Of a DNA stretch of 64,000 nt, positions 7,375 through 53,320 are shown one piece after another (position 1 is the first letter of the stretch; each line of letters begins with the position of its first letter). Below the pieces are notes generated by a model. It made no database searches. It worked only from the letters and a program-made list of their open reading frames with translations, and was not told the origin of the DNA. The translations under genes were made by a program, and so were the position numbers. The DNA is from Nemertoderma westbladi (lineage: Eukaryota > Animalia > Xenacoelomorpha), in assembly GCA_032718475.1 (NCBI GenBank), contig JAUCBJ010008372.1, positions 1 to 64,000 of the forward strand, written 5' to 3'.

Positions 7375-7849
7375 TAACCTAGGTACATAGGTTACCTAGG
7401 TACATAGGTTACCTAGTTACATAGGTTACCTAGGTACATAGGTTACCTAGGTACATAGGTTACCTAGTTACATAGGTTACCTAGTTACATAGGTTACCTA
7501 GTTACATAGGTTACCTAGTTACATAGGTTACCTAGTTACATAGGTTACCTAGGTACATAGGTTACCTAGTTACATAGGTTACCTAGGTACATAGGTTACC
7601 TAGTTACATAGGTTACCTAGGTACATAGGTTACCTAGGTACATAGGTTACCTAGTTACATAGGTTACCTAGTTACATAGGTTACCTAGTTACATAGGTTA
7701 CCTAGTTACATAGGTTACCTAGTTACATAGGTTACCTAGGTACATAGGTTACCTAGTTACATAGGTTACCTAGGTACATAGGTTACCTAGTTACATAGGT
7801 TACCTAGGTACATAGGTTACCTAGTTACATAGGTTACCTAGGTACATAG
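7375..7849. repeat. 17-bp minisatellite tag(g/t)tacataggttacc, about 28 copies
   Basis: Directly visible tandem array with two unit variants. It ends exactly at the 5' LTR boundary. Confidence 0.97.
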
Positions 7850-9434
7850 TGTTCGCGGTATTTCAACTTTCCATAACGCGAGTTGAATATTTTTGTATTT
7901 TATTAAAATTGATTATTCCGATATTACTACTGGGTGCGGGACCATGGGTTTTGGGCACATTCAATAAACTGGGGGCGATTTATGGGCGAACTTTGGGGCA
8001 ACTTACAGGGTACGGGAATAATTTCATAGTTATAAGGGCCAGGGGGGATGGAAAATGCAAGCAGTATTCAGGTTAGCCTGAGTACTATTAGGCCCTGGCC
8101 AACTTCCTGCTGCCTGTAGGGGTGGATTTGGTAATGTGCCAGGCCTAAAGGACAAGGACTGCCCTTAGCGGTCCCTGGCCAACGGCAGCTACTACGAGCC
8201 TGAAAAGGACTCGGAACGCTGACTGCTTGTGTCAGGGATTTGCGACGGGCACCGACGGCCCCTTAGTAGCCAAGCCGTTCTGGGTCTCAATGATCGAACC
8301 CCGGGGTTCGTGAGGGGTGGAGCGGACACGCGAACAGGTGGCCAACTTAAGACTGCCCCCTGACCTAAGCCGTACTGGTTCTCGATGACCGATCCCTTTG
8401 GGGTTCGTGAGGGGTGGGACGGACATGCGAAAGGGCTGGCCACAGGACTGGTTTGACAAGGACTGCCCTTAGCGGTCTCGGGTCAACTGCGGCTACTACG
8501 AGCCTGAAAAGGACTCGGAACGCTGACTGCTTGACTGTGATTTGCGACGGGAACCGACGACAGACCCCTTAGCCAAGCCGTTCTGGTTCTCGATGATCGT
8601 TCCCTTCGGGGTTCGTGAGGGGTGGAACGGACACGCGATGGGGTCGAAAGACAAAGGACTAGACTCGACTAGACTCTACTGGCCTACCGACTGTTCGGAG
8701 CAGTTTCTCGGCTGCCGAAGCGACTACGAGCCTGAAAAGGACTCGGAAAGCCTAGGTGGTTGGGTTTCTGTGATGAACTGACGGACCCCTAGCCAAGCCG
8801 TTCTGGTTCTCGATGATCGAACCCTTCCGGGTTCGTGAGGGGTGGAACGGACACGCGAACGGGTCCACCGACACGACAGACTCCTAGCCAAGCCGTACTG
8901 GTTCTCGATGACCGAACCCTTCGGGGTTCGAGAGGGGTGGTACGGATACGCGACAGAGTCTACCGACTGGACCGACCCTTAGCCAAGCCGTGCTGGTTCT
9001 CGATGATCGTTCCCTTCGGGGTTCGTGAGGGGTGGAACGGACACGCGACAGGGTCGACCGACACCGACACTACGGCACTAAGACTGGGACTGAGGGAAAA
9101 TCTGGGGAACATTAGGTAGGCTAAAATTCTGAGCGAACAGTGGGTTATTAAATAATATACCGTAGGGATTTATATTATCGTGTATACTTATTGTGAATAT
9201 TTGGTGTATATTGATTTGGGGAAGCCCAAAATTATTCTTAATCAAGGTTCAACAGAGTTCAGTTACATTAAAGAGTATATCCAACTAATGCAGCTTTTCT
9301 CAACCGCAAACTTGCATCTTAGAAATATTCCCTCCCCACAATCAATATCCGGTGACTGGCCGGGGCTCGGTGGTCTGTTAAGTCACGTCTCCAGCATCGG
9401 CGTTTTTCCCCCTGGTGTAGGAATAACGGCAACA
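7850..9434 (+). repeat. 5' LTR (1585 bp)
   Basis: Starts tgttcgcggtatttcaac and ends ataacggcaaca. Colinear with 18243-19854. Confidence 0.93.
8258..9056 (+). ncRNA. Array of six ~85-nt structured RNA units (kink-turn-like core, C(UUCG)G apical hairpin) in the 5' LTR
   Basis: Consensus core ccgttc-tggttctc-gat-ga-t-cgaaccc-ttcg-gggttcg-t-ga-ggggtg-gaacgg at about 8258, 8353, 8563, 8783, 8878 and 8973, with compensatory changes in two stems. The repeat is directly visible; RNA function is inferred. Confidence 0.6.
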
Positions 9435-9455
9435 AAATTAAGAATAATTATATGG

Positions 9456-9602
9456 TTAATTTTGAACGGGTGTCAAAATTAAGAATAATTCACGTGGTTA
9501 ATTTTGACGGGGTGTCAAAATTAAGAATAATTAATGCGGTTAATTTTGACACGGTGTCAAAATTAAGGATAATTACGGTCAACTTCAACTGGTGGAAGTT
9601 GA
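9456..9602 (+). repeat. 42-bp-period palindromic repeats (three copies plus a fourth unrelated hairpin) at the position of the primer-binding site
   Basis: ttaattttga(c)...(g)tcaaaattaa at 9456-9482, 9498-9524 and 9540-9566; tcaacttc...gaagttga at 9579-9602. Confidence 0.85.
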
Positions 9603-9768
9603 GAATCCTTCAATACTCTTCAAAAACTCTCTATGTGCTTGCCAGCACCCACTACGAGGAAACTCTGGTATTTGAGTTGAGACAAAGTCGTGGTTTAATT
9701 AAACAACAAACTCGATCTAACCAACTCGTAGTCGGCAGATCACAATTCGGGAGAGTTGTTAACAGGGA

Positions 9769-9960
9769 ATGGAAGTATCGATCACACCCATTGATATAAT
9801 TCAAGTTGAGCCAGGAATCTGGCACGTCGAAGTTGAGGTACAAGGAACGAACGTTGGACGATTCAGGATTACTGTTCGGGTGGTCCAAGCTGAGTACAAT
9901 ACCTACGAGGAACTGTTTTACGACATCGCGTATCTCGCCATCGACGAGGCGTTACAATGA
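9769..9960 (+). CDS. Small upstream ORF (63 aa) overlapping the gag start, unknown function
   Basis: ATG start, protein-like alternating hydrophobic pattern, and its stop overlaps the gag ATG as ATGA (9957-9960). Confidence 0.4.
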   Translation: MEVSITPIDIIQVEPGIWHVEVEVQGTNVGRFRITVRVVQAEYNTYEELFYDIAYLAIDEALQ

Positions 9961-12900
9961 CCACAAATAACGTATCCGATACCGACGAGATGGATCACCA
10001 CACAGACTCGGAAGCCGACGAGGTACCAAACGTCAAGAACATGACCCGTCGGTTAGGGGCTCTTAAAGGCGGAGTAACCCGAGTGTATCAACGGATGGAG
10101 AAACAACTCAAGGGAGTCAAAACCCCCCTCAATGAGGTACAAACTCAGCTTCAAAGTATCCGAAATATCCTACAGCGGTACGAAAGAATGATACAGGCGT
10201 ACCAAGAGCTCGTTCCCCCCACCGATCTGGAAAACTACCCCAAGTTGGAAGAACACGTTGTACATCTAGATGGGTTCCGCAAACAACACCGGAGGACCCT
10301 CAGCCTTGTGAGAGGCTATGAGGAACAGTATTACAAGAGGGCCGAAAGAACAGACGCGGAATCAGTACGATCCTCCAGCATCAGGACAGCAGTACATCGA
10401 AAGAGAACGGGGTCCGTTAGAGATCAGCACTCCAGCGCTAGGAGCGAAATATCCGGCTCAGCGCGCAGTTCTCAAGGGGCGCCGCCACTCCGAGACCAAC
10501 TGCGAGAACGGAAGGCATTAGCCCTCAAAGCTCGGATGGAAGATGAGTATATTCAACTGCAAGCCGAGCAAGATGTATTAGCCGCCGAAACACAAAAGCG
10601 AGAGGCCGAACAAGAGGTCGAACGACGGGTCGAACAACGCAGACAGGAGGTCAGACAGGAGATCGAACAACGTGAACGAGAGGCCAAACGAGAGATCGAA
10701 CAACATGAACGGGAGGCCAAACAAGAGATCGAACAACGTAAATGGGAAGCAGAAATGCGTAAACAACACGCCGAGGCCCAAGCGATTCTCACTCACAAAA
10801 AGAATGCAGATATTGCGAAACTGGCGGAATACGAGGCCGCACTTATAGAACGAGATATTCAACTCTACGAGGACTGGGAAAGGGATATAGATCAGGAATA
10901 TGAACCAATTCCGATACCGGAGTTAGAAAAGTCATTTACACCAACAGCGACGAAACCTCCGAAACTCGAGATCCCGCCTACCAAACAGTCTACGCTATCG
11001 GCACAAGCTCCGGTGTTTCATCCCCCACCGGCTACGCTAAAGAATGAGGAACCCTATTTCCCATCCAACACCACGACAGCGAGTGTACCCAAGTACGAGC
11101 CTGAAAAGGACTCGGAACGGGACGCCACTCCCCGATCAAACAACCCATTTACATCAACACCACAAACTCGCAGCCGCGTCATTATTAAAACTCCACCTAC
11201 TATTGATCCATCAAGTATGGGAGTGAGTGCCAATAACTATAACCCTCCGAGTCACTCTAGTTCAGACGACGTCAGCATCATCCGGGCGTTGGAGAACCGC
11301 CTTGCCATGCCAAAGATGGAGATTCGCACCTTCGAAGGAGATCCCGTCGATTACCTCAGATTCAAGAAACGGTTCTTTGCGCAGATCGGATCAACGGACA
11401 TAGCCGACGCACAGAAATTGGTATATTTATCGCAATACCTGGGTGACAAGCCACGCAGAATTGTTGCATGTTTTGAGGGAGGTTCTCATGAGGCATACTA
11501 TGACGCATGGAAAACTCTAGATAAAAGATACGGAAATACCGGAACTATAATTAATAAAACTCTAGAGAAACTGATACAAGACGCGGGATCACTAGGGGAC
11601 CCACAGAACCTCCAGGAATTCTCAGATTCCATGAAGGATGCCTACTACACTCTGAAACCCTTAAATAAGGAGGACCAGGTGAACAACATTCTAAACCTCC
11701 GACAGATCGCCCGGAAGTTCCCCGGATGGCTGCAAAGTAAGTGGGCCTATAAATGCGTAGATCTCCGGCGCAGACATCCAGATCAAGATCCCAGCTTCCT
11801 CGAAATGTCGGCATTCCTGGACGATATCTCCGAAGCCATGAATGACTCGATGTTCTCGAAACAAAGTCTCGCCAAGTTGGACGCAATGGAGAGCAATTAC
11901 CAGAGCAGGGCACCCACTCCAAACCCAAGATTCCGCCCTACTCCTGTGAGTGCGATGGCCATCAGTATGGCTGAGGACTCGGATGACGAGGATTACGAGG
12001 AACCGACCTCAGCAGAAGAATGGGCATGCTACCTAGCGAATTGGGCACCCGAAAGGGAAGGCACCACAGCCTCCCCTATATGTCTCTTCTGTGGGGAGAA
12101 ACACAAAGTGGAATTCTGCAGAAAGTTTCAGTTCGCCGAACTCGTCCCACGCTTCGAGGCGATAATGAAACACCGAGGATGCTTCCGGTGTCTTGGAACA
12201 GGTCACTATGTTCGGGAGTGCGACCAAAGATCATGCTGTACTGTCTGTAACGACCAACGCCATCACACGCTCCTCCACATCCCCGCGAACTTCGATTTTA
12301 CTACCCTCCCCTTTCGGATCGAAGCCAGGCGAAGAGGAGAAACAAACCACATCTTCAAAGGAACCCGGACAACCCAACGGAGAGAAACCAACCCGTTTAA
12401 GATCTCCACCAATACACCACAAGTAACCAATATTTCGGCCACGATTAATCTTATAAATCGCCGCTACATGGTTTTCGCAAAGGTAATCCCAGTGAGGATC
12501 CAAGGAGTCGGCAAATCTTTGACGACACTCGCGTTCCTCGATAACGGGTCTGACGGAACCATCATCGACCGGGATTTCCTCGAGCAACTCGGCCTAGAAT
12601 ATGAACCTTGTAAACGGCCCATACAAACCATCACCGATAACAGAGAGGTAGAGTCCGGGGAGGTGCAACTCCAGATGGAAGGAGTGATGAAGGGCTACGA
12701 AACGGCTAAGTTAACCATAAAGAACGCCTTGGTACACACAGACCTCCGGGTGCGGTTCCGACAATCAGCCGAGTACGCCCCCCTCATACAATTGGACCGG
12801 GACGATGTAGACCTGAGGTGTCCGCAGTTGGACGTAAACCGTATCACCCTACTGATCGGACTTGATACACCGGAACTACACATCCCCACAGGAGATATCG

Positions 12901-13817
12901 CCCGATCTATAAACCAGGATGACGGATTTTATGCTGAACGAACAATAATGGGATGGACACTCTGCGGCATTAAGGAGGAAACTACGGACACCTATACCTA
13001 CCTTCCTAAATGTCAGATTAAAGAGAATGTAACCTCTGTGGGTTATTGCTCAGTTTCGGATCTTGACGAGGATTTGTTTCTGGAAACAGAGAAAACCCAA
13101 CGAGAGATGACGAAATATTTTAATTTGGAGACCCAGGAGTTCGCGGAAAAGGACGAAAACCCATCCGAAGAGGACCAATATTGTATGGACGTTCTCGACC
13201 AGGCCACGTTTAAAGACGGACATTGGCGCGTACCCATGCTTTGGTGGATAATAAGGTTATTGATGATAATAATGATGTTGATAACATTGACACCATTAAT
13301 TGGAGAGCACGGACTAATCTGCCGTAATACCCGGATGGCGAACGCCTCAGTTGAGTCCCTCACTCCTAACCACTTACTGGGGAGACCCAAAACCCACCTC
13401 CTCCCGGAAACCATGTTCCCGGATCCCAACGAGATCGCGAAACATACAAACTGGAAAAAGGCCCAAGCGTTGGCAGCGCATTGGTGGAGGATTTGGGCCC
13501 AGGAATATCTCATAACCCTCCGGACCAGGAGGAAATGGAACAACACCCACCGGAACGTCGCAGTTGGCGACATGGTACTAGTTAGAGAAGATCTCAAAGA
13601 CCGCGTTCACTGGCCTGTGGCGCGGGTCGTGACCATACACCCAAGCAAAGACGGACTTGCGAGGACTGTGACGATACGAACGAAAGCGGGCCACTACCAA
13701 CGCCCCATCCAGAAGCTGTGCCTTCTTGAAGGCAATGACAGTGGTGATTCTACAAGAGGTGATAAGTTCCCTACGGATCCTACTGCAGACATTGGTGACA
13801 ATTACAAATGCGTTTAA
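9957..13817 (+). CDS. gag-pol: BEL/Pao Gag-protease polyprotein fused in frame to the integrase C-terminal tail (RT, RNase H and integrase core missing)
   Basis: Coiled-coil N-terminus; capsid-like FEGDPVDYLRF..YLSQYL..LDKRYG; knuckles CLFCGEKHKVEFC, CFRCLGTGHYVREC and CTVCNDQRHHTLLH; protease LAFLDNGSDGT. DGHWRVPMLW is followed within ~40 aa by LTPNHLL..WWRIWAQEYL..VGDMVLV..WPVARV..RPIQKLCLL. No RT catalytic or DDE motifs. Confidence 0.92.
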   Translation: MTTNNVSDTDEMDHHTDSEADEVPNVKNMTRRLGALKGGVTRVYQRMEKQLKGVKTPLNEVQTQLQSIRNILQRYERMIQAYQELVPPTDLENYPKLEEHVVHLDGFRKQHRRTLSLVRGYEEQYYKRAERTDAESVRSSSIRTAVHRKRTGSVRDQHSSARSEISGSARSSQGAPPLRDQLRERKALALKARMEDEYIQLQAEQDVLAAETQKREAEQEVERRVEQRRQEVRQEIEQREREAKREIEQHEREAKQEIEQRKWEAEMRKQHAEAQAILTHKKNADIAKLAEYEAALIERDIQLYEDWERDIDQEYEPIPIPELEKSFTPTATKPPKLEIPPTKQSTLSAQAPVFHPPPATLKNEEPYFPSNTTTASVPKYEPEKDSERDATPRSNNPFTSTPQTRSRVIIKTPPTIDPSSMGVSANNYNPPSHSSSDDVSIIRALENRLAMPKMEIRTFEGDPVDYLRFKKRFFAQIGSTDIADAQKLVYLSQYLGDKPRRIVACFEGGSHEAYYDAWKTLDKRYGNTGTIINKTLEKLIQDAGSLGDPQNLQEFSDSMKDAYYTLKPLNKEDQVNNILNLRQIARKFPGWLQSKWAYKCVDLRRRHPDQDPSFLEMSAFLDDISEAMNDSMFSKQSLAKLDAMESNYQSRAPTPNPRFRPTPVSAMAISMAEDSDDEDYEEPTSAEEWACYLANWAPEREGTTASPICLFCGEKHKVEFCRKFQFAELVPRFEAIMKHRGCFRCLGTGHYVRECDQRSCCTVCNDQRHHTLLHIPANFDFTTLPFRIEARRRGETNHIFKGTRTTQRRETNPFKISTNTPQVTNISATINLINRRYMVFAKVIPVRIQGVGKSLTTLAFLDNGSDGTIIDRDFLEQLGLEYEPCKRPIQTITDNREVESGEVQLQMEGVMKGYETAKLTIKNALVHTDLRVRFRQSAEYAPLIQLDRDDVDLRCPQLDVNRITLLIGLDTPELHIPTGDIARSINQDDGFYAERTIMGWTLCGIKEETTDTYTYLPKCQIKENVTSVGYCSVSDLDEDLFLETEKTQREMTKYFNLETQEFAEKDENPSEEDQYCMDVLDQATFKDGHWRVPMLWWIIRLLMIIMMLITLTPLIGEHGLICRNTRMANASVESLTPNHLLGRPKTHLLPETMFPDPNEIAKHTNWKKAQALAAHWWRIWAQEYLITLRTRRKWNNTHRNVAVGDMVLVREDLKDRVHWPVARVVTIHPSKDGLARTVTIRTKAGHYQRPIQKLCLLEGNDSGDSTRGDKFPTDPTADIGDNYKCV

Positions 13818-14426
13818 ACCCTTCTCATCATGTTGACAAACTCTTATTAAACTGTGATTTATCGACAATGAGTTATGGACCCCCCTTAAACCAACTGTAA
13901 CCACGCAATGGTATTTGTGTTTCCTCGTGTGTTATGTGGAGTCCAGCATCACCCTGCAGATGTTTCGACTGACGCAGGGTCGTTTATGCATTGTTTACCC
14001 TGATTTTGGTCACCGCGTTCACTGGCCTGTGGCGCGGGTCGTGACCATACACCCAAGCAAAGACGGACTTGCGAGGACTGTGACGATACGAACGAAATCG
14101 GGCCACTACCAACGCCCCATCTAGAAGCTGTGCCTTCTTGAAGGCAATGACAGTGGTGATTCTACAAGAGGTGATAAGTTCCCTACTACGGATCCTGCTG
14201 CAGACATTGGTGACAATTACAAATGCGTGTAACCCTTCTCATCATGTTGACAAACTCTTTTAAAACTGTGATTTATCGACAACGAGTTATGGACCCCCCT
14301 TAAACCAACTGTAACCACGCAATGGTATTTGTGTTTCCTCGTGTGTTATGTGGAGTCCAGCATCACCCTGCAGATGTTTCGGCTGACGCAGGGTCGTTTA
14401 TGTATTGTTTACCCTGATTTTGGTCA
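13601..14426 (+). repeat. Tandem duplication (~412 bp x2) of the pol 3' end and downstream sequence
   Basis: ccgcgttcactggcctgtgg...ctgattttggtca occurs at 13601-14012 and 14013-14426. Confidence 0.95.
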
Positions 14427-14514
14427 TCAGGACCTACGATATTGGATTATTGGAAATGGAAAAGATTTGAAGTGGAATTCATTGTATTCATTGCAGTATG
14501 TTATGTTGTCCGTT

Positions 14515-14930
14515 GCGTGCGCAGTTCGGGGCGTAGGCGGTGTAACGAGTCCAGCTGTAGATCCCGGATTGCCGCGCAACACCCCCTCTATCCCGTTATT
14601 CTGGTGGGTCCATGGTGCATCCACATGACTTCGACGATAGAGGGTTTTATGTTTCTCAGTCGCGTTATTCTGGTGGGACCGTTGTGTGGATTTTAGGGCG
14701 TAGGCGGTGTAACGAGTCCAGCTGTAGATCCCAGAATGTTGCGTAACCCCATCCCACATGACTTCGTCGACTGAGCTTTATGTTGTTGGGAGTGTTATTC
14801 TGGTGGGTCCCTGGTGCATTCCACGTGACTTCACTCCCAGCGTCTTCATTGTCCGTTACGTGCGCAGTTTGGGGCGTAGGCGGTGTAACGAGTCCAGCTG
14901 TAGATCCCAGATTGCCGCGTAACACCCCTT
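14515..14930 (+). repeat. Two interleaved GC-rich motifs, three copies each, in the pol-ORF3 spacer
   Basis: gggcgtaggcggtgtaacgagtccagctgtagatccc at about 14530, 14696 and 14872; gttattctggtggg(t/a)cc at about 14595, 14664 and 14794. Confidence 0.85.
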
Positions 14931-15477
14931 CCACGACAAAGATTAGCCAAAGAAAATGATTGAATATAGTTGGAAACGATGAAAAGGATCAGACAACTCT
15001 ACTATAAACCTGAATGATGACGCGTATGCTGATGAAAATGAAATGATGCGCACCCTGGTGCTGCGCTTATAACCAATGATGATAGCCGGGGGGCTATAAA
15101 CCCAATGATGATGTGGAAATAAATAAATGTGAAATAAATGGTGGAACTAAATGTTGAAATATATGTGGAAATAAATGAAATGAGATGAAATAATAATGAA
15201 ATGAAAAAAGACAAAAAAAAGGCATAAAAAAGGTCAAAGAAAAGAATTGGAAAAAAGAAAGGACAAAAAAGTCATAAAAAACTGGTTGGATATTATGTAT
15301 AGCTATAGTAACTGTAAATGCTGAATGTATTAGCAATAAGATGATAGATGTCTATATAGCAATATTATTTAATAAACTGAATTGAATAAAAACTGAATTA
15401 TTCTGCTATCGCTATAGATTCAGACTTTCTGGACTTACAATTAACTGAACTAATTTGTAACGGATATAATCGTAAAT

Positions 15478-18078
15478 ATGGACCCAAATCGCCAAATTAT
15501 CGGCGAATTACGTAACACGATAGATCTACTGGAATATTCGCAACCCGGATCCCCTGACTTCGATACAAATTGGAGCACCCTGCTAAATGAGAACGTGCGA
15601 GTCATTAAATTCACCGGGCGAGAGGGACCGGATTCTAAGAATCTACGAGCCCTCCGGTTAGCTGATGCTAGTACGAGACTGAAAAGAACTCGGAACGCAA
15701 AGGCAACCGGAGGGGACGATTCGTCGTTTTGGGAAACGTTCCAGCAGAGCGTCTACAGATCCCGATGTTTGATCTACGACAACGAGGGAAACGCGACGCC
15801 CACCTCGAAAGCGATTACGTTGGCGAGATGTCAAAGTTTCGTCGACGACAAGAGTACGTACCTCGCCCACTGGGGAAACCTGTCGGAGTGTACGGCGACG
15901 CTTCGAGAGGAACGCGTATCGATTATCCAAAACCGCGACGACTACCAGGAAAAGTACGGGGCGAAAGAATACGGTCGATCCTTAGTCGTCGTCCTCGGAA
16001 CCCTGGACGGTTTGGTACTGGTGTGCCGAATATTCCCGACACCCAGACAGGAAGTGCAGGCAGCCGGAGCGATCTGGTTGCTGCCTCCGGAAATCCAAAA
16101 GATCCTCTTCGACTTTGACGTCATTAAAATCGGGTCGGATATCAAGGCGGACGTCCGGAACGACTACGCGAACGCTCCTACAGGATGAAACCGACGAGAC
16201 GACCTCAACGCCCTTGGCCATTGCATCGACACTCAAACGTTACTAGCCTGGTTACGATTCGCCGAGTTCATGCGAGGATTCCAAGAGGTGAGACCGACGA
16301 AATCCGGGATCGGCTACCTCGCTGTGCTAAACGGCGGTATCGACTTCAAACCCCAGAAATTCCGGGACTATAATAAAATATACAGTGGATACCCGGGATT
16401 GGAAATAAAGAGCGAGCGAGAGGGTCGATGGAAGGACGTTGATCGGAAGTGGACGATACACCAAAGATGGGAGAATCCCGATCGACGGAACTACGTTTAC
16501 GTCGTTATGGAATGCTACACCGTCGCTAAGTTTATCTGTAAAACTCTCGATAACCTTATTACGGCGGTCCCCCTTTCCTTCGTCGACTACGACTGGAACG
16601 AGGTTATAAACCACGCGTTTAAAGCGGTCGAGAACATTACACCGGGAGAATCGAAAACACCCGCCGTTATCGATTCCTGGGACGAGAGCGGACCTTACGA
16701 CATCCCTACGATTACCGAACTTCTCGGTGCGGAGGAGCCTCTGATCTCTTCGGAAGGGGAAGAGATATGGCTAAACGAGGGTGTTCTACTCTCCACCCCG
16801 AAGTGACAACTAGAGCCGGAGGCCGCGTATGGACCGGCCGCCAAACGGGTTGCCTCGACCGAATCGATGAAGAGAGCAGGCGTTTACACTCCACGCGGCT
16901 CCGGTAGCCCCGCGAGGGAGGTGGCTACTACAGCTGCATTGAGCGACTTCGGCGACATATGCCAACGGTTATCCCCGTATCCTTTCCCGGGTGGCGAAGA
17001 TTGGTCGTCGGAGATTCCGAGTACCAGCCACCAACGGACCCGCGCAGCGATACTGATCGAGGAGGGCCCCAGCGACGCGCCGACCCCCGACGATCTCCTC
17101 GGTATCCCTCCGTCGAAAACCCCGGCACCTCTTCGCCGACCAGTGGTGGCTACTACACCCGCCGTTCCTCAGGACCCTATGCGACTAACCCGTTGGTACG
17201 CCGAGCAAACTGAATGGATCCACCGCCAGAAACGGTCATCCGAGTTGAGACCAGCGGGACACAAAGAAGGTTATCGGAGCGAGAACCTATTACGCAAAAG
17301 CCTAGCATTCCGCGGGCTACCGACCACCGAGAATATTCCGAAGAGCGACCGACGACTCGAATACTACGTCGGCGTCCCGATTCCGATATTCCCCGGTCGA
17401 GAGATGCAGTTGGAGGTATGCGGCGACTGCGGCTCGGAGCAGTGCCCACGCGGCAGAAGGAATCGGGTTACCGATTCTTGCCTCCAGCTCCTCGGGATAC
17501 TCTATTGCCCATACTGCGCGACATCGGGCCACGACGTTTCCGTCTGCCCGATCCTTTATAACCTCTGCACCACGTGCGGTTTCCGTGGACATTCCTCTAG
17601 CCCCCGCTGCTATATCAAATGTCCAACCAAAGACGTTACCGCTATGGGCAATATGGTCATGTTTGAAACATACGCAAACAGCCATTTAAAGACCAAGGTT
17701 CGGAGAAACGCTCGGAATATCGCGCAGGAGATGGCGTGCGGATATTTCTCCTTCCTGGAACGCCTCCACACGTCGGCCACGCTACCTTTCCATTACGTGG
17801 ATCTACTACTGAGCGCCGGATTATTCGGTCCATTTGAAGTCATTAGACAATTATACTCGTATAAAGAGGAGTTCGGTGATGGAGAATGGTTCCTAGAGGC
17901 ACGCAAATCTGAGTTGGAAAGACGAACCGACATGATCCCGATGCCTTCGAAAGGAAGAGCCGCCAGGAGACAAGCCGAAGCGTTACTCACGATGGACGTT
18001 GATGCTCCTCTACCAGCCATAGCGATCGATGAGAGTCGACGGGCGAAGAGACGAAAGGCGTATCAGAGAAAGAAATAG
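15478..18078 (+). CDS. Retrotransposon accessory ORF: DEDDy-like (WRN/EXD/RNase D-type) 3'-5' exonuclease plus C-terminal Cys/His zinc knuckles; one frame of ~866 codons interrupted by two in-frame TGA
   Basis: ORFs 15478, 16270 and 16867 are in the same frame and separated only by TGA at 16186 and 16804. Motifs: ExoI-like LIYDNEG; LPPEIQKILFDFDVIKIGSDIKAD (ExoII); CIDTQTL; SGIGYL; W...YVYVVMEC (ExoIII-like YxxxE); CPYCATSGHDVSVC; CTTCGFRGHSSSPRC. Confidence 0.7.
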
Positions 18079-18230
18079 TGGATCGGGATATTCCAGGAAC
18101 ATTTATCGAACATTTATTTTTTATACAAACTCTAGGCCAAATTAATTAAAAACTATGCAATATTAAATTTGGGTTTTTTATTGGGAATGACCTACGCAAA
18201 CTCAATCGACCGACAGACTTCACGAAGGTC

Positions 18231-18242
18231 ATTGGGGGGGAC
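18231..18242 (+). promoter_or_regulatory. Polypurine tract
   Basis: attgggggggac immediately before the 3' LTR TGTT. Confidence 0.75.
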
Positions 18243-19854
18243 TGTTCGCGGTATTTCAACTTTCCATAACGCGAGTTGAATATTTTTGTATTTTATTTAA
18301 AATTGATTATTCCGATATTACTACTGGGTGCGGGACCATGGGTTTTGGGCACATTCAATAAACTGGGGGCGATTTATGGGCGAACTTTGGGGCAACTTAC
18401 AGGGTACGGGAATAATTTCATAGTTATAAGGGCCAGGGGGGGATGGAAAATGCAAGCAGTATTCAGGTTAGCCTGAGTACTATTAGGCCCTGGCCAACTT
18501 CCTGCTGCCTGTAGGGGTGGATTTGGTAATGCGCCAGGCCTAAAGGACAAGGACTGCCCTTAGCGGTCCCTGGCCAACAGCAGCCATTACGAGACTGAAA
18601 AGAACTCGGACCGCTGACTGCTTGTGTCAGGGATTTGCGACGGGCACCGTAGTAGCTTAGTAGCCAAGCCGTTCTGGTTCTCGATGATCGTTCCCTTCAG
18701 GGTTCGTGAGGGGTGGAGCGGACACGCGAACGGGTGGCCAACTAACGACTGCCCCCTGACCTAAGCCGTACTGGTTCTCGATGACCGATCCCTTCGGGGT
18801 TCGTGAGGGGTGGGACGGACATGCGAAAGGGCTGGCCACAGGACGGGTTTGACGAGAACTGCCCTTAGCGGTCTCTGGTCAACGGCAGCTACTACGAGAC
18901 TGAAAAGAACTCGGAACGCTGACTGCTTGTACTGGGATTTGTGACGGGAACCGACGACAGACCCCTTAGCCAAGCCGTACTGGTTCTCAATGATCGTTCC
19001 CTTCGGGGTTCGTGAGGGGTGGAACGGACACGCGATGGGGTCGAAAGACAAAGGACTAGACTCGACTAGACTCTACTGGCCTACCGACTGTTCGGAGCAG
19101 TTTCTCGGCTGCCGAAGCGACTACGAGCCTGAAACGGACTCGGAAAGCCTAGGTGGTTGGGTTTCTGTGATGAACCGACGGACCCCTAGCCAAGCCGTTC
19201 TGGTTCTCGATGATCGAACCCTTCGGGGTTCGTGAGGGGTGGAACGGACACGCGAACGGGTCCACCGACACGACAGACTCCTAGCCAAGCCGTACTGGTT
19301 CTCGATGACCGAACCCTTCGGGGTTCGAGAGGGGTGGTACGGATACGCGACAGAGTCTACCGACTGGACCGACCCTTAGCCAAGCCGTGCTGGTTCTCGA
19401 TGATCGTTCCCTTCGGGGTTCGTGAGGGGTGGAACGGACACGCGACAGGGTCGACCGACACCGACACTACGGCACTAAGACTGGGACCGAGGGAAAATCT
19501 GGGGAACATTAGGTAGGCTAAAATTCTGAGCGAACAGTGGGTAATTAAATAATATACCGTAGGGATTTATATTATCGTGTATAATTATTGTGAATATTTG
19601 GTGTATATTGATTTGGGGAAGCCCAAAATTATTCTTAATCAAGTTTCAATGATGTTGAACGGGTTTCAACTATAGGAAGTTACATTAAAGAGTATATCCA
19701 ACTAATGCAGCTTTTTATCAACCGCAAACTTGCATCTCAGAAAATATTCCCTCCCCACAATCAATATCCGGTGACTGGCCGGGGCTCGGTGGTCTGTTAA
19801 GTCACGTCTCCAGCATCGGCGTTTTTCCCCCCTGGTGTAGGGATAACGGCAACA
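18243..19854 (+). repeat. 3' LTR (1612 bp), with the same six-unit hairpin array
   Basis: tgttcgcggta...ataacggcaaca. Similar but not identical to the 5' LTR (indel near 19645-19680, substitutions in 18580-18960). Confidence 0.93.
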
Positions 19855-22281
19855 AGTATTGATACAGAATATGATACCCTGACCTTTTTGAAATTTCCCA
19901 CCACCACAAACAAACAAACATACTTTCCCACAAACAGAGAAATGTATCATTGGATTTGGTAGGTTTTCTCATGTTACAATAAGTGTGGAATTATTGTACT
20001 GTTTATAGCAGAGTAAGTGTCTTATTCAAAAATTACGAGTGTACAGAACAGTGAGTGTGGAAAAATAGTAATGTAAGTTCAAATAAGTACTGTATATAAG
20101 TGCCACTCATCAAAGAAAGTATAATTTTTAATGTCGTTTTATTCCTGGTAAAATAAATTATTATAAAAATATATGTATATAAATTAGTTCGTATTTGAAT
20201 AGTTTCGTGAGTTGCCAAATCGGTTGGATCTATATATGGGAGTCTAGAACTGACACGTTATATTCGTCGAATAAGTGGCCATTGTCGATACAGTGTTGTG
20301 TTATTCCAAAACGTTTATAGCCATTATATAAGACCGCATATAACTGTAAATCGATACTTTTCATTTACCAATTACCATTATTTACATTCAAATTTTAAGC
20401 CCACCACCAACACTGTCAGTAAAAACTCTAACACTCTCCATAAATAATGTTCGTTGTGGTGTTTTATATGTTTTAGTTTAAGTTTCCCAATGCAATTATG
20501 GTCAGTTCAGGCATTACAGTCTATTTTACATAATGCATGCATGAGTTTAACCTTCTTTCCCAACCATCTTTAAATCGGAGCAAACAGTAGTTGTTTATAT
20601 TAACAGTATACTGTATCGCGGGTAGTTGTTTATATTAACAGTATACAGTATCGCGGGTAGTTGTATATATTAACAGTATACAGTATCATGGGTAGTTGTT
20701 TATATTAACAGTATACAGTATCATGGGTAGTTGTATATATTAACAGTATCGCGGGTAGTTGTTTATATTAACAGTATACAGGATCGCGGGTAGTTGTTTA
20801 TATTAACAGTATACAGTATCGCGGGTAGTTGTTTATATTAACAGTATACAGTATCGCGGGTAGTTGTTTATATTAACAGTATTCAGTATCGCGGGTAGTT
20901 GTTTATATTAACAGTATACAGTATCGCGGGTAGTTGTTTATACTAACAGTATCGCAGGTAGTTGTTTATATTAACAGTATCGCAGGTAGTTGTTTATATT
21001 AACAGTATCGCAGGTAGTTGTTTATATTAACAGTATACAGTATCGCGGGTAGTTGCTTATATTAACAGTATACAGTATCGTGGGTAGTTGTTTATATTAA
21101 CAGTACAGTATCACGGGTAGTTGTTTATATTAACAGTATCGCGGGTAGTTGTTTATATTAACAGTATAAAGTATCGTGGGTAGTGGTTTATATTAACAGT
21201 ATCGCAGGTAGTTGTTTATATTAAAAGTATACAGTATCGCGGGTAGTTGTTTATATTAACAGTATACAATATCGCAGGTAGTTGTTTATATTAACAGTAT
21301 CGCAGGTAGTTGTTTATATTAACAGTATACAGTATCGCGGGTAGTTGTTTATATTAACAGTATACAGTATCGTGGGTAGTTGTTTATATTAACAGTACAG
21401 TATCGCAGGTAGTTGTTTATATTAACAGTATCGCAGGTAGTTGTTTATATTAACAGTATACAGTATAGCGGGTAGTTGTATATATTAACAGTATACAGTA
21501 TCACGGGTAGTTGTTTATATTAACAGTACAGTATCGCGGGTAGTTGTTTATATTAACAGTATACACTATCGCGGGTAGTTGTTTATATTAACAGTACAGT
21601 ATCGCGGGTAGTTGTTTATATTAACAGTATACAGTATCGTGGGTAGTGGTTTATATTAACAGTATCGCAGGTAGTTGTTTATATTAACAGTATACAGTAT
21701 CGCGGGTAGTTGTTTATATTAACAGTATACAGTATCGCAGGTAGTTGTTTATATTAACAGTATCGCAGGTAGTTGTTTATATTAACAGTATACAGTATCG
21801 CGGGTAGTTGTTTATATTAACAGTATACACTATCGCGGGTAGTTGTTTATATTAACAGTACAGTATCGCGGGTAGTTGTATATATTAACAGTATCGCGGG
21901 TAGTTGTTTATATTAACAGTACAGTATCGCAGGTAGTTGTTTATATTAACAGTATTGCAGGTAGTTGTTTATATTAACATTATACAGTATCGCGGGTAGT
22001 TGATTATATTAACAGTATACAGTATTGCGGGTAGTTGTTTATATTAACAGTACAGTATCGCAGGTAGTTGTTTATATTAACAGTATTGCAGGTAGTTGTT
22101 TATATTAACAGTATACAGTATCGCGGGTAGTTGTTTATATTAACAGTATACAGTATCGCAGGTAGTTGTTTATATTAACAGTATACAGTATCGCGGGTAG
22201 TTGTTTATATTAACAGTATACAGTATCGTGGGTAGTTGTTTATATTAACAGTACAGTATCGCAGGTAGTTGTTTATATTAA

Positions 22282-34700: not shown

Positions 34701-37600
34701 GTTTATATTAACAGTATCGCAGGTAGTTGTTTATATTAACAGTATACAGTATCGCGGGTAGTTGTTTATATTAACAGTATACAGTATCGTGGGTAGTTGT
34801 TTATATTAACAGTACAGTATCGCGGGTAGTTGTTTATATTAACAGTATACAGTATCGCGGGTAGTTGTTTATATTAACAGTATACAGTATCGCGGGTAGT
34901 TGTTTATATTAACAGTATACAGTATCGCGGGTAGTTGTTTTATTAACAGTATACAGTATCGCGGGTAGTTGTTTATATTAACAGTACAGTATCGCGGGTA
35001 GTTGTTTATATTAACAGTATACAGTATCGTGGGTAGTTGTTTATATTAACAGTATACAGTATCGCGGGTAGTTGTTTATAGTAACAGTATACAGTATCGC
35101 GGGTAGTTGTTTTATTAACAGTATACAGTATCGCGGGTAGTTGTTTATATTAACAGTACAGTATCGCGGGTAGTTGTTTATATTAACAGTATACAGTATC
35201 GTGGGTAGTTGTTTATATTAACAGTATACAGTATCGCGGGTAGTTGTTTATATTAACAGTATACAGTATCGCGGGTAGTTGTTTATAGTAACAGTACAGT
35301 ATCGCGGGTAGTTGTTTATATTAACAGTATACAGTATCGTGGGTAGTTGTTTATAGTAACAGTATACAGTATCGCGGGTAGTTGTTTATATTAACAGTAT
35401 ACAGTATCGCGGGTAGTTGTTTATATTAACAGTATACAGTATCGCGGGTAGTTGTTTATATTAACAGTATACAGTATCGTGGGTAGTTGTTTATATTAAC
35501 AGTATACAGTATCGCGGGTAGTTGTTTATAGTAACAGTATACAGTATCGCGGGTAGTTGTTTATATTAACAGTATACAGTATCGTGGGTAGTTGTTTATA
35601 TTAACAGTATACAGTATCGCGGGTAGTTGTTTATAGTAACAGTATACAGTATCGTGGGTAGTTGTTTATATTAACAGTATACAGTATCGCGGGTAGTTGT
35701 TTATATTAACAGTATACAGTATCGCGGGTAGTTGTTTATATTAACAGTATACAGTATCGTGGGTAGTTGTTTATATTAACAGTATACAGTATCGCGGGTA
35801 GTTGTTTATAGTAACAGTATACAGTATCGCGGGTAGTTGTTTATATTAACAGTATACAGTATCGTGGGTAGTTGTTTATATTAACAGTATACAGTATCGC
35901 GGGTAGTTGTTTATAGTAACAGTATACAGTATCGTGGGTAGTTGTTTATATTAACAGTATACAGTATCGCGGGTAGTTGTTTATATTAACAGCATACAGT
36001 ATCGTGGGTAGTTGTTTATATTAACAGTATACAGTATCGCGGGTAGTTGTTTATATTAACAGCATACAGTATTGTGGGTAGTTGTTTATATTAACAATAT
36101 ACAGTATCGTGGGTAGTTGTTTATATTAACAGTACAGTATCGCGGGTAGTTGTTTATAGTAACAGTATACAGTATCGTGGGTAGTTGTTTATATTAACAG
36201 TATACAGTATTGCGGGTAGTTGTTTATATTAACAGTATACAGTATCGCGGGTAGTTGTTTATATTAACAGTATACAGTATCGCGGGTAGTTGTTTATATT
36301 AACAGTACAGTATCGCGGGTAGTTGTTTACAGTAACAGTATACAGTATCGTGGGTAGTTGTTTATATTAACAGTATACAGTATCGCGGGTAGTTGTTTAT
36401 ATAAACAGTACAGTATCGCAGGTAGTTGTTTATAGTAACAGTATACAGTATCGTGGGTAGTTGTTTATATTAACAGTATACAGTATCGCGGGTAGTTGTT
36501 TATATTAACAGTACAGTATCGCGGGTAGTTGTTTATAGTAACAGTATACAGTATCGCGGGTAGTTGTTTATATTAACAGTATACAGTATCGTGGGTAGTT
36601 GTTTATATTAACAGTACAGTATCGCGGGTAGTTGTTTATAGTAACAGTATATGTACAGTATCGTGGGTAGTTGTTTATATTAACAGTATACACTATCGCG
36701 GGTAGTTGTTTATATTAACAGTATATACTATCGCGGGTAGTTGTTTATATTAACAGTATACAGTATCGTGGGTAGTCGTTTATATTAACAGTACAGTATC
36801 GCGGGTAGTTGTTTATATTAACAGTATACAGTATCGCGGGTAGTTGTTTATATTAACAGTATACAGTATCGTGGGTAGTTGTTTATATTAACAGTACAGT
36901 ATCGCGGGTAGTTGTTTATAGTAACAGTATACAGTATCGTGGGTATTTGTTTATATTAACAGTATACAGTATCGCGGGTAGTTGTTTATAGTAACAGTAT
37001 ACAGTATCGCGGGTAGTTGTTTATATTAACAGTATACAGTATCGCGGGTAGTTGTTTATATTAACAGTATACAGTATCGCGGGTAGTTGTTTATATTAAC
37101 AGTATACAGTATTGCGGGTAGTTGTTTATAGTAACAGTATACAGTATCGCGGGTAGTTGTTTATATTAACAGTATACACTATCGCGGGTGGTTGTTTATA
37201 TTAACAGTATACAGTATTGCGGGTAGTTGTTTATATTAACAGTATACAGTATCGCGGGTAGTTGTTTATAGTAACAGTATTCAGTATCGCAGGTAGTTGT
37301 TTATATTAACAGTATACACTATCGCGGGTAGTTGTTTATATTAACAGTATACAGTATCGCGGGTAGTTGTTTATATTAACAGTATACAGTATCGCGGGTA
37401 GTTGTTTATATTAACAGTATACAGTATCACGGGTAGTTGTTTATATTAACAGTATACACTATCGCGGGTAGTTGTTTATATTAACAGTATACACTATCGC
37501 GGGTAGTTGTTTATAGTTGCTCCAACCCAGAATTTTTCATCGTAATATTGGATGTCAACTGTGTGGAAAGACAGCTTAACAATAATTATACTTTATGCAG

Positions 37601-40600
37601 GAGATGGTCACGGCACAATTATAGTAATTGATACGTTCAGTAAAGATCAAACTGAAAGAAAGAAAAGTATCAAACAGGTGGAAAGTATATTGGAGAAAAC
37701 TGAAGAATTAAAGGAAATCGTTGAGTATATTGGATGGGTTGGTCCCATAAATAAACCACTCCAGGGTAAGATAACTGATATAATTATATCTACTGTTGAT
37801 GTTCTTTCAGATAAAGAGAAAGAACTTTACTTTAGACTGGATGCAGATATTTCTGAGTTAACAACCCAGAATCTGGTTAGTATTTGGGGTTTAAATGAAG
37901 TTTCAACAATAGAAATTGTTAATAAATTCAAAGACATGGGACTTATGATTATGAATATAAGTGGATCAAATACACTGAAACTTCCAAAATTTTTAATTAA
38001 TTATATAAAAGAACAAAAACTGCCCATAGAGATACTGGCGAGAGGCCCAGAAGCATTGGCTGCTTATAAAGCAGCTCTTTCTAAAGGGACTACATGGATA
38101 CTGAAAACCCGGTTAATGTTAGTGGGACAAGAGAGGGCTGGTAAAACTAGTTTGAAGAAGTCCCTTATTGGTCAACCGTTTGATATAAATGAACCAATAA
38201 CTGATGGTATTGACTCATCTGCTAACTGTATTATAAATACCGGACAAAACACAGATTGGACCAACATGAAAGAAGAGCCTGAGACAGCTGTTGATGTCGT
38301 CATTACTAAGGAAATTGCAAAAACAGTTCTAGAAAGAAAACAAGTTGCAGGTGATGAGTCTGATATTTCTGGAACTTCAGCAATGGGTATTGGTATTGCG
38401 ACACCCTCAGTTGCAACATCTTCATCTTCTACTGATGATCAACCTAAGATTGCTACTTCAACTCCAAGTTATGGTGCTGAGAAAGTTCAAAAGGATAGTT
38501 TGTGGAGGCGGGTAGTTTCAGTATTACCTGGTTTAAAGTCAAAATATAATAGAAGTAAAATAAATATAAAATCTAGTACAACTTTATTAACTGGTGAGAA
38601 TGAAAGTAAACCTATTGAAGAAAATCTTTCTAGGCAACCCATAAGGGGAGCTATGGGAAATGATATTCCTGGCAACATCACAAAGGGAGTAGAGGATATA
38701 TTGTTATCTGGTAAACCTCAAGATATTCTGGCTAAATTTAATGAGGAAGACAGTCGCTTTTCTCTACAGATAGTCGATTTTGGTGGCCAATGTATTTATT
38801 ACACAACCCATCAGATATTTTTGAGTAGACGAGCTATTTATATAATTGTATTTAATCTCTTGGAAAATCTTGAAAAAACTCCTAATATTATTTTCAGATC
38901 TGATGAAAACAATATTAATGAGTTTGTTTTCGGTGAGATTAAGAATATTGAGTTTATTGAATTTTGGTTAAAAAATATTTATTCGTTTGGTACAAAACTA
39001 GAAGTAAATTCTTGTCCACCTGTTTTTGTAGTTGGAACTCATAAAGGCAGCTTACATGCTGATCCTGATACTCAATCTGTAATAGCAAGTAAAATATTTG
39101 AAAAGATTAAGACCCATTTGGGTAAATCTTCATATACAGATAATCTAATTAAAGATTACTTTGCTATAGAGAATAATAGAGAAATTATATATGGTGGAGA
39201 GAAAGGACTTGAAAATTTACAGGCCGATATTGTCAAGGAAATGGTAAATTTTAAGGAGGAAATACCTTTGCAATATCTAAAATTTGACCAACTTGTGTCT
39301 CAATTAATCAAGGATGGTAAAGTTTATATTGACATTGACTTGCTAGAGATTAAATTAAAGGATATTGATGTAGAAATGGATAACATTGGTTTGAAAACCA
39401 TGTTAGAATTTTACCACGATTTGGGTACAATAATTTACTTTGACGATGAATCTCTAAGAGATACTGTTATACTGAGCCCAGAATGGTTGAGTGGAATGTT
39501 TACCAAAATAATAACTGTAAAAGACAAAATAAAGAAACAACATTTTACATTCTGGAAGAACCTGGATGACAATGGTATATTACATGAAGAACTCCTTGAT
39601 TATCTGTGGGAAGGCGTTCTTGATAAAAAACAATTTATGTTGAATATTCTAGAACGTTTTGATTTATTATGTGAACGAGTTTTACCAAGAACCGAAAGAA
39701 CATTGCAAGATGATGTAAAGTTGGCTTATTATGTACCTTGCCGCCTTAAATCTGTTAGATATACTCCATTCACACCAAGACAATGTAAAGTTGAATTTTA
39801 TATTACATTCAAGAGTTTCTTACCGCAAGGATTGTACTACCGTTTAATTAAGAGAACTATAGATTTGTCCTACATTGTAGGTAATAGAGTAATTCAACCT
39901 AAACTTTACCACAGAGTTGCTCAAATATTTTTAGATTTTAATCATCAGGTAATTTTGGAAAGATCTTCTATTTCATTAAATTGGATTAAAGTTCAGGTAA
40001 TTAGATCTGAGATGTTTAGTTCGGGCGATGAACAAACTGAAAGTAAACTTGCACCAGATCCGGATATTGTTAATAAAGTAAATCATTTTATTAATACTTC
40101 ATTGAAGGAAATTATTACCCAAATGAGATTTAAAAATATTTCATTTGATTTCGAAATAAAATGTGAATGTAATGCTAAATGCGATCAACATAGATTACTT
40201 GACTGCAATGAAGAAGGATGTTTTCACTTTGTTAAACTGGCAGATATTCTATCAAATGATTTTGTTCAATGTAAATTTAATAACTCTGTTAGAAGTCGAT
40301 ATATTAGTGGAAAATTCCCTGTTGTTGGGAGATTTAGCTCACATTGGTTAAACATTACAACTAACCAAGATGACCTTATTGATAGACTGGAAATCTCAGA
40401 GTTACTTGTATACTTAGCAAGTAAGGGGGCTATATCAAAGGAAGTTTTAGCTGTTATTGAATCTAAGTCGAATTTGTTGAGTAAGAATAAGATTTTGTTG
40501 GAGTCAATAAAATGGGGATCAGAAAATAATTACAAAGTATTTATTGAAGCATTATATGTAACCAATCAACCGCTTTTGGTTGAAATTTTGCATGAAAAAA

Positions 40601-41022
40601 TCAAAATGGAAGACCAAATGTTCCCTGATATTCTAACAAAGTATAAATATATGTTAATGAAAAATTTAGAACAAACTAAATTTGTTGCACAACTTCTTAT
40701 TATCAGAAAAGTTATAAGTAAATCTATCCTAGAAATAATAGAATGCAAAGAATCCATAGATAGTAAGAATGTTGTACTTATAAACGCAGTAATGAAAAGA
40801 TCTTATAAGGATTTTCTATCTTTTTGTAAATGTCTCAGGGTCACCAACCAACATCATTTAGCTGATACTCTAGAGGAAGCTACCAAAGGTTATGATGCTG
40901 ATATTGTAGACATTACCAATCAAGCTGATGAAGTTGCTGATATAGATAATACTAATCAAGGTGGAGAGGCCGCTGGGGTTATAGACGTTACCAATCAACC
41001 GGTGGAGAGGCTGCTGTTATAG
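37601..41022 (+). CDS. Large exon of a Roco-family protein: Apaf-1-like winged helix, Roc GTPase, COR, CARD, CARD
   Basis: The ORF opens at 37552, with a likely acceptor ctttatgcag at 37600. PIEILARGPEALAAY pre-Roc motif; G1 GQERAGKTS; G2 TDGID; G3 DFGGQ then YYTTHQIFLSRRAIYIIVFNL; G4 VGTHKG; COR LEFYHDLGTIIYF..VILSPEWL. Two ~85-aa death-fold repeats end FIEALYVTNQPLLVEIL and FCKCLRVTNQHHLADTL. Confidence 0.88.
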
Positions 41023-53000: not shown

Positions 53001-53320
53001 AAGGTAGAGAGGTTGCTGTTATAGACGTTACCAATCAAGGTTGAGAGGCTGCTGTTATAGACGTTACCAATCAAGGTTGAGAGGCTGCTGTAATAGATGA
53101 TACCAATCAAGGGAGAGGGGCTGCTGTTATAGACATTACCAATGAAGGTGGAGAGGCTGCTGTTATAGACGTTACCAATCAAGGTTGAGAGGCTGCTGTT
53201 ATAAACGTTACCAATCAAGGTAGAGAGGCTGCAGTTATAGACATTACCAATCAAGATAGAGAGTCTGCTGTTATTGACATTACCAATCAAGGTGGAGAGG
53301 CTGCTGTTATTAACATTACC
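40900..53320 (+). repeat. 36-bp minisatellite (gttatagacattaccaatcaaggtagagaggctgct; VIDITNQGREAA in the Roco frame), roughly 340 units
   Basis: Directly visible. It begins in frame within the Roco ORF (IVDITNQADEVA, IDNTNQGGEAA). Later units contain frameshifts and TGA variants. Confidence 0.97.

Follow-up and report, generated by a model that had tools for sequence, protein, structure and literature searches.

Two repeated hairpin modules in the LTRs of a non-autonomous BEL/Pao retrotransposon likely fold in RNA and resemble k-turn and loop-E type motifs

Export elements of the RcRE and CTE type, such as the 433-nt RcRE of HERV-K, are long structured RNAs in U3 or near the 3' end, within the 3' UTR of an element with an accessory protein, and show that a U3 region can harbor a structured element for RNA export (PMC11379458). 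These elements are vertebrate retroviral and, in the accessible text of that source, are not described as tandem arrays of k-turn and loop-E modules. At the level of individual motifs, the k-turn of box C/D snoRNAs and U4 snRNA belongs to the standard type, in which two helices are separated by a 3-nt bulge and, next to it, a tandem of G-A and A-G pairs (PMC8191799, PMC5689011); a second motif of relevance here is the 11-nt receptor of GAAA tetraloops (treated also in PMC2615604). In self-priming elements, the primer site is complementary to a stretch inside the LTR (PMC4600332), and this applies, as far as available descriptions go, to the LTR retrotransposons Tf1 and Tj1. Retrozymes and other retroelements with structured LTR RNA are, in the accounts at hand, non-autonomous and carry structured RNA in their repeats. 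BEL/Pao elements are reported from animals only (PMC3601003), and their cis-acting RNA elements appear to be little studied.

Here we analyze a BEL/Pao retrotransposon, the LTRs of which carry two repeated hairpin modules, denoted A and B, that likely fold in the RNA of the element, where the array probably lies in the 3' UTR. The array is real and represents a modular RNA element that has not been described before; its putative function is of a known kind, and all copies come from one insertion. All positions given are those of the window, that is, the whole 64-kb stretch of DNA that was analyzed, on its plus strand; the features are listed in Table 1.

Table 1. Features of the BEL/Pao element and of its hairpin array
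Feature	Position	Strand	Remarks
5' LTR	7850..9434	+	1585 nt; ends TGTT...AACA
B hairpin 1	8160..8251	+	basal loop, long stem, loop-E-type motif, GAAA-capped head
A unit 1	8258..8344	+	outer stem irregular; apical loop deleted in 5' LTR
A unit 2	8355..8440	+	most diverged; outer stem irregular
B hairpin 2	8466..8551	+	weaker stem
A unit 3	8563..8645	+	
B hairpin 3	8693..8778	+	
A unit 4	8783..8866	+	
A unit 5	8878..8961	+	holds most compensatory changes
A unit 6	8973..9056	+	
Putative self-primer	9230..9242	+	exact reverse complement of 9437-9449; would mark start of R
Putative primer-binding site	9437..9449	+	2 nt behind LTR; lies in a 42-nt repeat (3.4 copies), of which it is the first copy
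ORF1	9894..13817	+	BEL/Pao gag (DUF1759), protease, DUF5641
B head within gag reading frame	11088..11121	+	own closing stem, short
ORF2	15454..18078	+	nuclease-like N-terminal half, Cys/His-rich C-terminal half, basic tail
B hairpin, 5' part of ORF2	15650..15714	+	own long stem; reading frame differs from gag copy
Polypurine tract (G run) 5' of 3' LTR	18234..18240	+	
3' LTR	18243..19854	+	1612 nt; ~95% identical to 5' LTR
B hairpins 1-3, 3' LTR	18555..19175	+	about 18555-18646, 18862-18948, 19090-19175
A units 1-6, 3' LTR	18652..19453	+	about 18652-18740, 18751-18836, 18960-19042, 19180-19263, 19275-19358, 19370-19453

The retrotransposon spans positions 7850-19854 (about 12 kb) and is a BEL/Pao deletion derivative. 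Its two LTRs have TG...CA ends, a polypurine tract precedes the 3' LTR, and comparison with Pfam identifies a DUF1759 gag, an aspartyl protease and DUF5641 in ORF1; among the candidate relatives of ORF1, 32 of 5943 score, nearly all with Pao-type domains and with a best whole-region identity of 21-26%. The comparison of ORF1 with Pfam yields no match to RT, RNase H or the integrase core, which indicates a non-autonomous BEL/Pao derivative with an internal deletion. Unlike retrozymes, the element contains no hammerhead or other Rfam ribozyme and retains long ORFs. No target-site duplication was found at the flanks (7850 and 19854), and the differences between the 5' and 3' LTRs are clustered in patches (the linker of unit 1 and positions 9246-9260); given these two observations, the element is possibly a recombinant of two copies. 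A 414-nt tandem duplication (13600-14426) covers the last part of ORF1 along with adjacent downstream sequence. Between ORF1 and ORF2, the region 14500-14930 contains three copies of a G+C-rich word of about 40 nt along with other short repeats, and is a possible internal promoter or further RNA element. A 17-nt satellite (7377-7849) adjoins the element on the left and a 35-nt satellite (20587-21500) is located nearby on the right.

Module A corresponds to the hairpin array of the original prediction, according to which each LTR contains six units, several of them spaced exactly 95 nt apart. We recovered 6 + 6 units, all on the plus strand and none on the minus strand, with spacings of 95, 208, 220, 95 and 95 nt in the 5' LTR and 97, 209, 220, 95 and 95 nt in the 3' LTR; three of the units form a plain 95-nt tandem array. 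The four outer-stem pairs on which the claim of covariation was based (8563/8640, 8783/8861, 8878/8956 and 8973/9050) are all present, and the outer stem indeed changes in sequence and keeps its pairing in units 3-6 of both LTRs, that is, in the 8 of the 12 units in which it is superior to flank shuffles with a fixed core (p 0.003-0.013). The claim does not extend to units 1 and 2, the outer stems of which are no better than flank shuffles (p 0.13-0.50). The middle stem shows the predicted changes in units 1, 2, 5 and 6, but the position described as compensatory is mismatched in 4 of the 10 distinct rows of the alignment and compensated in 1. In the apical part, the UUCG tetraloop is intact in 8 of the 12 units and a U-U follows the GA pairs in 8 (C-U in 2 and C-A in 2), but the exact apical stem that had been quoted, UUCG included, is found in only 3 of the 12; two apical pairs are unpaired in 4/10 and 6/10 distinct rows, often as U-U. 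The near invariance of the loop strands (the "pocket") holds across the units. Each of four damaged tetraloops is private to one LTR, as is expected of decay after insertion. The regularity of the A units had been overstated.

In the alignment of the A units, 4 of the 27 pairs are changed on both sides; one of these (columns 6-88), which derives from the irregular stem of unit 1, is probably an alignment artefact. The covariation score of the alignment was reached by none of 500 column shuffles and the four double-change pairs by 15 of 500, with a control that ignores the relatedness of the copies, and slid pairing partners score worse than the true ones. Because all A copies come from one insertion, the case for this module is carried by about four independent compensatory events. 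When the predicted folds are compared with those of shuffled sequences, only 5 of the 12 single units reach z <= -2, and 6 of 12, with z between -0.6 and +0.9, do no better than the shuffles. The arrays as a whole are in keeping with the plus-strand reading that had been proposed from the tetraloop, with z scores of -2.7 and -2.4 on the plus strand against -0.7 and -0.1 on the minus strand (12 shuffles each); for units 4 and 5, z is -3.1 and -3.6 when folded as RNA and -0.8 and -1.7 when folded as DNA.

Module B, which was missed in the original prediction, is present in 8 copies, namely three per LTR, one in gag and one in ORF2, so that the order of modules in the LTR is B-A-A-B-A-B-A-A-A. 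The A and B hairpins of the LTR have in common a basal 3x3 loop above a short stem. The B head of about 26 nt hardly varies, despite the different reading frames that its gag and ORF2 copies occupy, and in the closing stem 3 of the 4 pairs are changed on both sides with pairing kept across the 8 copies. The head is built from a loop-E-type motif, four pairs, a bulge and a GAAA loop, the latter found in 8/8 copies and closed by U-A in 7/8. In the loop E or bulged-G pattern, AGUA lies opposite GAA between helices. With its GAAA cap, the B head resembles a sarcin-ricin/loop E motif with a GNRA loop, but differs from it in that seven pairs and a bulge separate the motif from the tetraloop and in that all six copies in the LTRs carry a pyrimidine where the strict loop E has its bulged G. 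A descriptor modeled on this pattern, and written after the units had been seen, matches in its strict form 2 of the 8 copies, those of gag and ORF2, which are the only strict matches in the window, and in its loose form all 8, with one chance match on the minus strand. The z scores of the predicted folds are -5.6 for hairpin B1 and -5.0 for the ORF2 copy; B hairpins fold well as DNA, too (z -2.9 and -5.6), the long B stem is superior to flank shuffles in no more than 4 of 8 copies, and in the predicted optimum the flanks of the gag copy are unpaired. A covariance model of the B head recovers the 8 copies on which it was trained, with no further match below E 2.

These observations bear on the question whether the modules function in DNA or in RNA. 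The units might be enhancer or promoter repeats of U3, or else neutral tandem duplications of one old hairpin in which paired changes arose by template switching between the arms; tandem repeats with a role in transcription are common in U3 (PMC3601003), and such an origin is compatible with the plain 95-nt spacing of three units as well as with the fact that most positions of the A units are invariant and several of the changes break pairs. It would, however, leave unexplained the strand bias with G-U pairs, the k-turn pattern described below, and the presence of B heads with new, paired flanks 1.6 and 6 kb inside the element, and we consider it quite unlikely. Our analysis supports the claim that the units are selected RNA modules on the plus strand, as opposed to plain DNA repeats, and the occurrence of module B in two coding frames with covarying closing pairs adds to its strength; we hold selection at the RNA level to be highly probable.

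All 12 A units contain a 3-nt bulge, a G-A/A-G tandem, C-G at position -1 and a non-Watson-Crick 3b:3n, and share these features, along with the U at the end of the bulge, with the k-turns of box C/D snoRNAs and U4 snRNA. A k-turn descriptor, written after the units had been seen, has 12 matches in the window, all of them A units, and none elsewhere on either strand; the strict form is matched by 2 of 20,000 shuffles of unit 4, and a loose form by one extra site in the window and by 66 of 20,000 such shuffles. Among the 17 columns of the junction, only 3b and 3n vary between units and never to a Watson-Crick pair, and the published k-turn rules leave 3b:3n free (PMC8191799, PMC5689011). The helices of the k-turn itself show no compensatory change, being invariant or containing U-U mismatches, and for the 11 of 12 units that are scorable ViennaRNA, the model of which gives k-turns no credit, predicts a shifted pairing, with the GA pairs buried, to be more stable than the k-turn register by 4.0-7.1 kcal/mol. 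Thus, the k-turn that had been read from the core fits the published consensus at every tested position, but is not backed by covariation and faces a more stable predicted pairing. There is precedent for a k-turn formed only upon protein binding (PMC6298567), and we somewhat favor formation of this kind for the A units. A closed 3-nt bulge, a protruding U and a U-U correspond to the preference of Snu13/15.5K, whereas the U in the pocket speaks against L30 (PMC1874613); the A units combine a closed bulge and a protruding U with U-U in 8 of 12, and Snu13/15.5K is their best-fitting binder. Unlike their counterparts in box C/D and U4 RNAs, the k-turns of the A units each lie inside a single LTR hairpin that is repeated six times, have C-G at position 4 and a predicted rival pairing, and come without a guide region and without a box pair at the RNA ends.

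The SECIS core is a k-turn-like motif of 3' UTRs as well (PMC1874613), and the A heads could thus be conceived as SECIS-like signals that recode two in-frame UGA codons of ORF2 (TGA at 16186 and 16804). The G-A/A-G tandem with a non-Watson-Crick neighbor is present in module A, but A has a short apical helix and a closed bulge and lacks the apical AAR loop, the long helix II and the large internal loop of SECIS; furthermore, it has C-G at helix position 4 instead of the purine-pyrimidine pair associated with SBP2 (PMC1874613). Two ORF2 relatives that could be aligned in full contain neither a stop nor a Cys at the places of the UGA codons. The context of the second of these codons is one that we take to be prone to read-through, but taken together, the evidence makes a SECIS function extremely improbable.

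Several features of the units also recall RNA polymerase III or guide-RNA cassettes, be they tRNA-derived, H/ACA-like or C/D-like, carried by the LTR. In the 5' LTR, 5 of the 6 units contain an A-box-like word, which a B-box-like word follows at a distance of about 40 nt, and ACA follows the stem in 4 of 6. The B-box-like word, however, misses conserved letters, there is no T run before 9295, and no tRNA is called by ARAGORN. In archaeal-type H/ACA RNAs, ACA is located 14-16 nt below the top of a variable pocket; here, it is found 20-21 nt from the pocket top in 4 of 6 units and the pocket is nearly invariant, so that the H/ACA likeness, doubted from the outset, fails, and the cassette reading as a whole is very unlikely. 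A box C/D snoRNA was rejected as a candidate, given that only a 7-bp stem-loop lies between the strands and that the Rfam C/D match is at chance level (13.6 bits against a cut-off of 55). Possible likenesses to HCV IRES loops, twister, the MPMV CTE loop and lambda boxB were set aside for lack of Rfam support.

The 4x4 internal loop of module A is laid out like the 11-nt GAAA receptor, with the core C-G pair and the AA platform in 12/12 units, and each of three changes in the loop (two in unit 2 and one in unit 5) restores the canonical receptor letter. The loop differs from the receptor in the core U of the Hoogsteen U-A pair, which is retained in 2 of the 12 units and replaced by C in the other 10, in the inverted flanking pair and in an extra bulged A beside the loop; unit 2, which has the core U, contains a C-C mismatch at the flanking pair. 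Changes of the core U pair mostly weaken GAAA binding beyond detection (bioRxiv 10.1101/2022.12.15.518780), and with C in 10 of 12 units the docking of B on A is a lead rather than a result. Such docking is at the heart of an alternative in which the modules pack against one another and no host protein is involved, with the GAAA loops of B docked on the A loops and the k-turns setting the angles, to yield a compact or multimeric RNA that might serve genome dimerisation, block a nuclease and leave a stable 3' fragment, or act as a ribozyme of a new kind. This scheme accommodates the receptor layout, the three restoring changes and the GAAA caps closed by U-A, and C at position 3b, found in 4 of 12 units, predicts folding in ions alone (PMC8191799, PMC5689011); it conflicts with the core C, with the C-C mismatch of unit 2 and with the bulged A, and Rfam ribozymes give no match up to E 10. 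We rate self-assembly as unlikely, and neither the ribozyme option nor the processed small RNAs that had been entertained for the units find any support.

The location of the array in the transcript depends on where transcription starts. The sequence behind the 5' LTR has no evident primer site of the tRNA type, and it is complementary to positions 9230-9242 of the LTR over 13/13 nt (Table 1), a complement that none of 2,000 LTR shuffles attains. The match suggests self-priming, which in this BEL/Pao element would be similar to that of Tf1 and Tj1. With a start near 9230, as inferred from this complement, the array would belong to U3 and would be read once, from the 3' LTR, behind ORF2, as part of the 3' UTR. 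A poly(A) word is found at 9267; a TATA-like word at 8031 marks an alternative start that would put the array in the leader. Every LTR part occurs at least once in full-length genomic RNA, and the array of an active element therefore cannot be a never-transcribed part of the LTR. A sequencing run the RNA status of which is a guess (X1) contains 0.41 of the LTR words, with 14 contigs over 7850-18240 and two over 8690-8880, and two further runs (X2, X3) contain no contigs over these regions. One contig of run X1 spans the LTR and, at 8279-8993, skips 713 nt of the array, with one B and one A unit remaining; it may represent a true short LTR or an assembly collapse.

Under the reading that we tentatively put forward, with a probability just short of even, the array would be a multivalent platform that loads proteins onto the element RNA and so serves the export, stabilisation or packaging of this RNA. 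A host L7Ae-family protein, with Snu13/15.5K as the best fit, would bind each A head and convert the shifted pairing to the kinked form, whereas the B heads would be bound by the element's zinc-knuckle protein, either Gag or the product of ORF2, which would explain why copies of this module are spread along the genomic RNA. The copy number of the modules would raise avidity. The likeness of such a platform to RcRE and CTE is one of placement and putative export role. In a bolder and rather doubtful version, the 3' UTR is assembled from 3D motifs of ribosomal and snoRNP type and the genomic RNA is dressed as a snoRNP-like particle: the six k-turns would recruit Snu13 together with its assembly and transport machinery, the GAAA/loop-E hairpins would have as docking partners either the A loops or the nuclease-zinc-knuckle protein of the element itself, and reverse transcription would be primed by the 5' end of the element RNA. 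Should Snu13 bind the k-turns, a mobile element would use an assembly protein of snoRNPs and U4 as a host factor, a link that was not found in the literature searched. The B head is a candidate packaging or export signal for BEL/Pao elements, and the primer-site complement is a candidate for self-priming outside the groups in which it is documented. The array is well suited to experimental study, with modules of 85-95 nt, natural variants at informative positions and standard L7Ae assays.

ORF2, which is broken by the two in-frame TGA codons, has 7 distant relatives among 1.8 billion representatives, and the family is unnamed: comparison of ORF2 pieces and the 7 relatives with Pfam names none above the cut-off, and a word search with the C-terminal piece finds no relatives. 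Judged by motifs in the alignments, the N-terminal half resembles a DEDDy-type 3'-5' nuclease; the stretch that carries the first acidic motif in the relatives is missing in this ORF2. The Cys-rich part of one relative shows a weak match to retroviral zinc knuckles (E 1e-4). Rotifer LTR elements of other clades are known to carry DEDDy ORFs, and such ORFs of LTR retrotransposons have been discussed in connection with silencing (PMC5408684). The array could be viewed as a decoy that, together with the nuclease-like ORF2 product, either titrates Snu13 or another host factor that binds RNA or protects the 3' end against silencing by small RNAs, in line with the six k-turn patterns per LTR and with the nuclease-like and zinc-knuckle-like parts of the ORF2 relatives. 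However, titration of an abundant protein would demand high expression, and the B copies inside the ORFs look like cis signals, so that we assign the decoy a low probability.

Searches for relatives of the array were negative. Rfam yields one chance-level match for positions 7800-9500 (E <= 10) and none for 9400-20000 (E <= 5), and hence no described family for the A/B array, a match to which would have removed its novelty. Exact A patterns are found in 0 stretches of viral, metagenome and genome contigs, and exact B patterns in none of the viral contigs. A looser A pattern, which matches 8 of the 12 units of the element itself, gave 1 viral and 6 genome matches, none of the 7 with both flanking stems, and these were dismissed as chance. 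The search for a sister LTR through a single protein related to ORF2 produced 347 pattern matches, 0 of them confirmed. In the literature searched, for the most part outside the subscription journals, we found neither an array of k-turns or loop-E motifs in a retrotransposon LTR nor a self-priming BEL/Pao element.

Elsewhere in the window, positions 37546-41022 contain an uninterrupted reading frame of 1158 aa with Roc, COR-A and CARD domains, located between satellite blocks. Finally, a 36-nt minisatellite, the minus strand of which contains long open frames, takes up about 12 kb (41081-53300).
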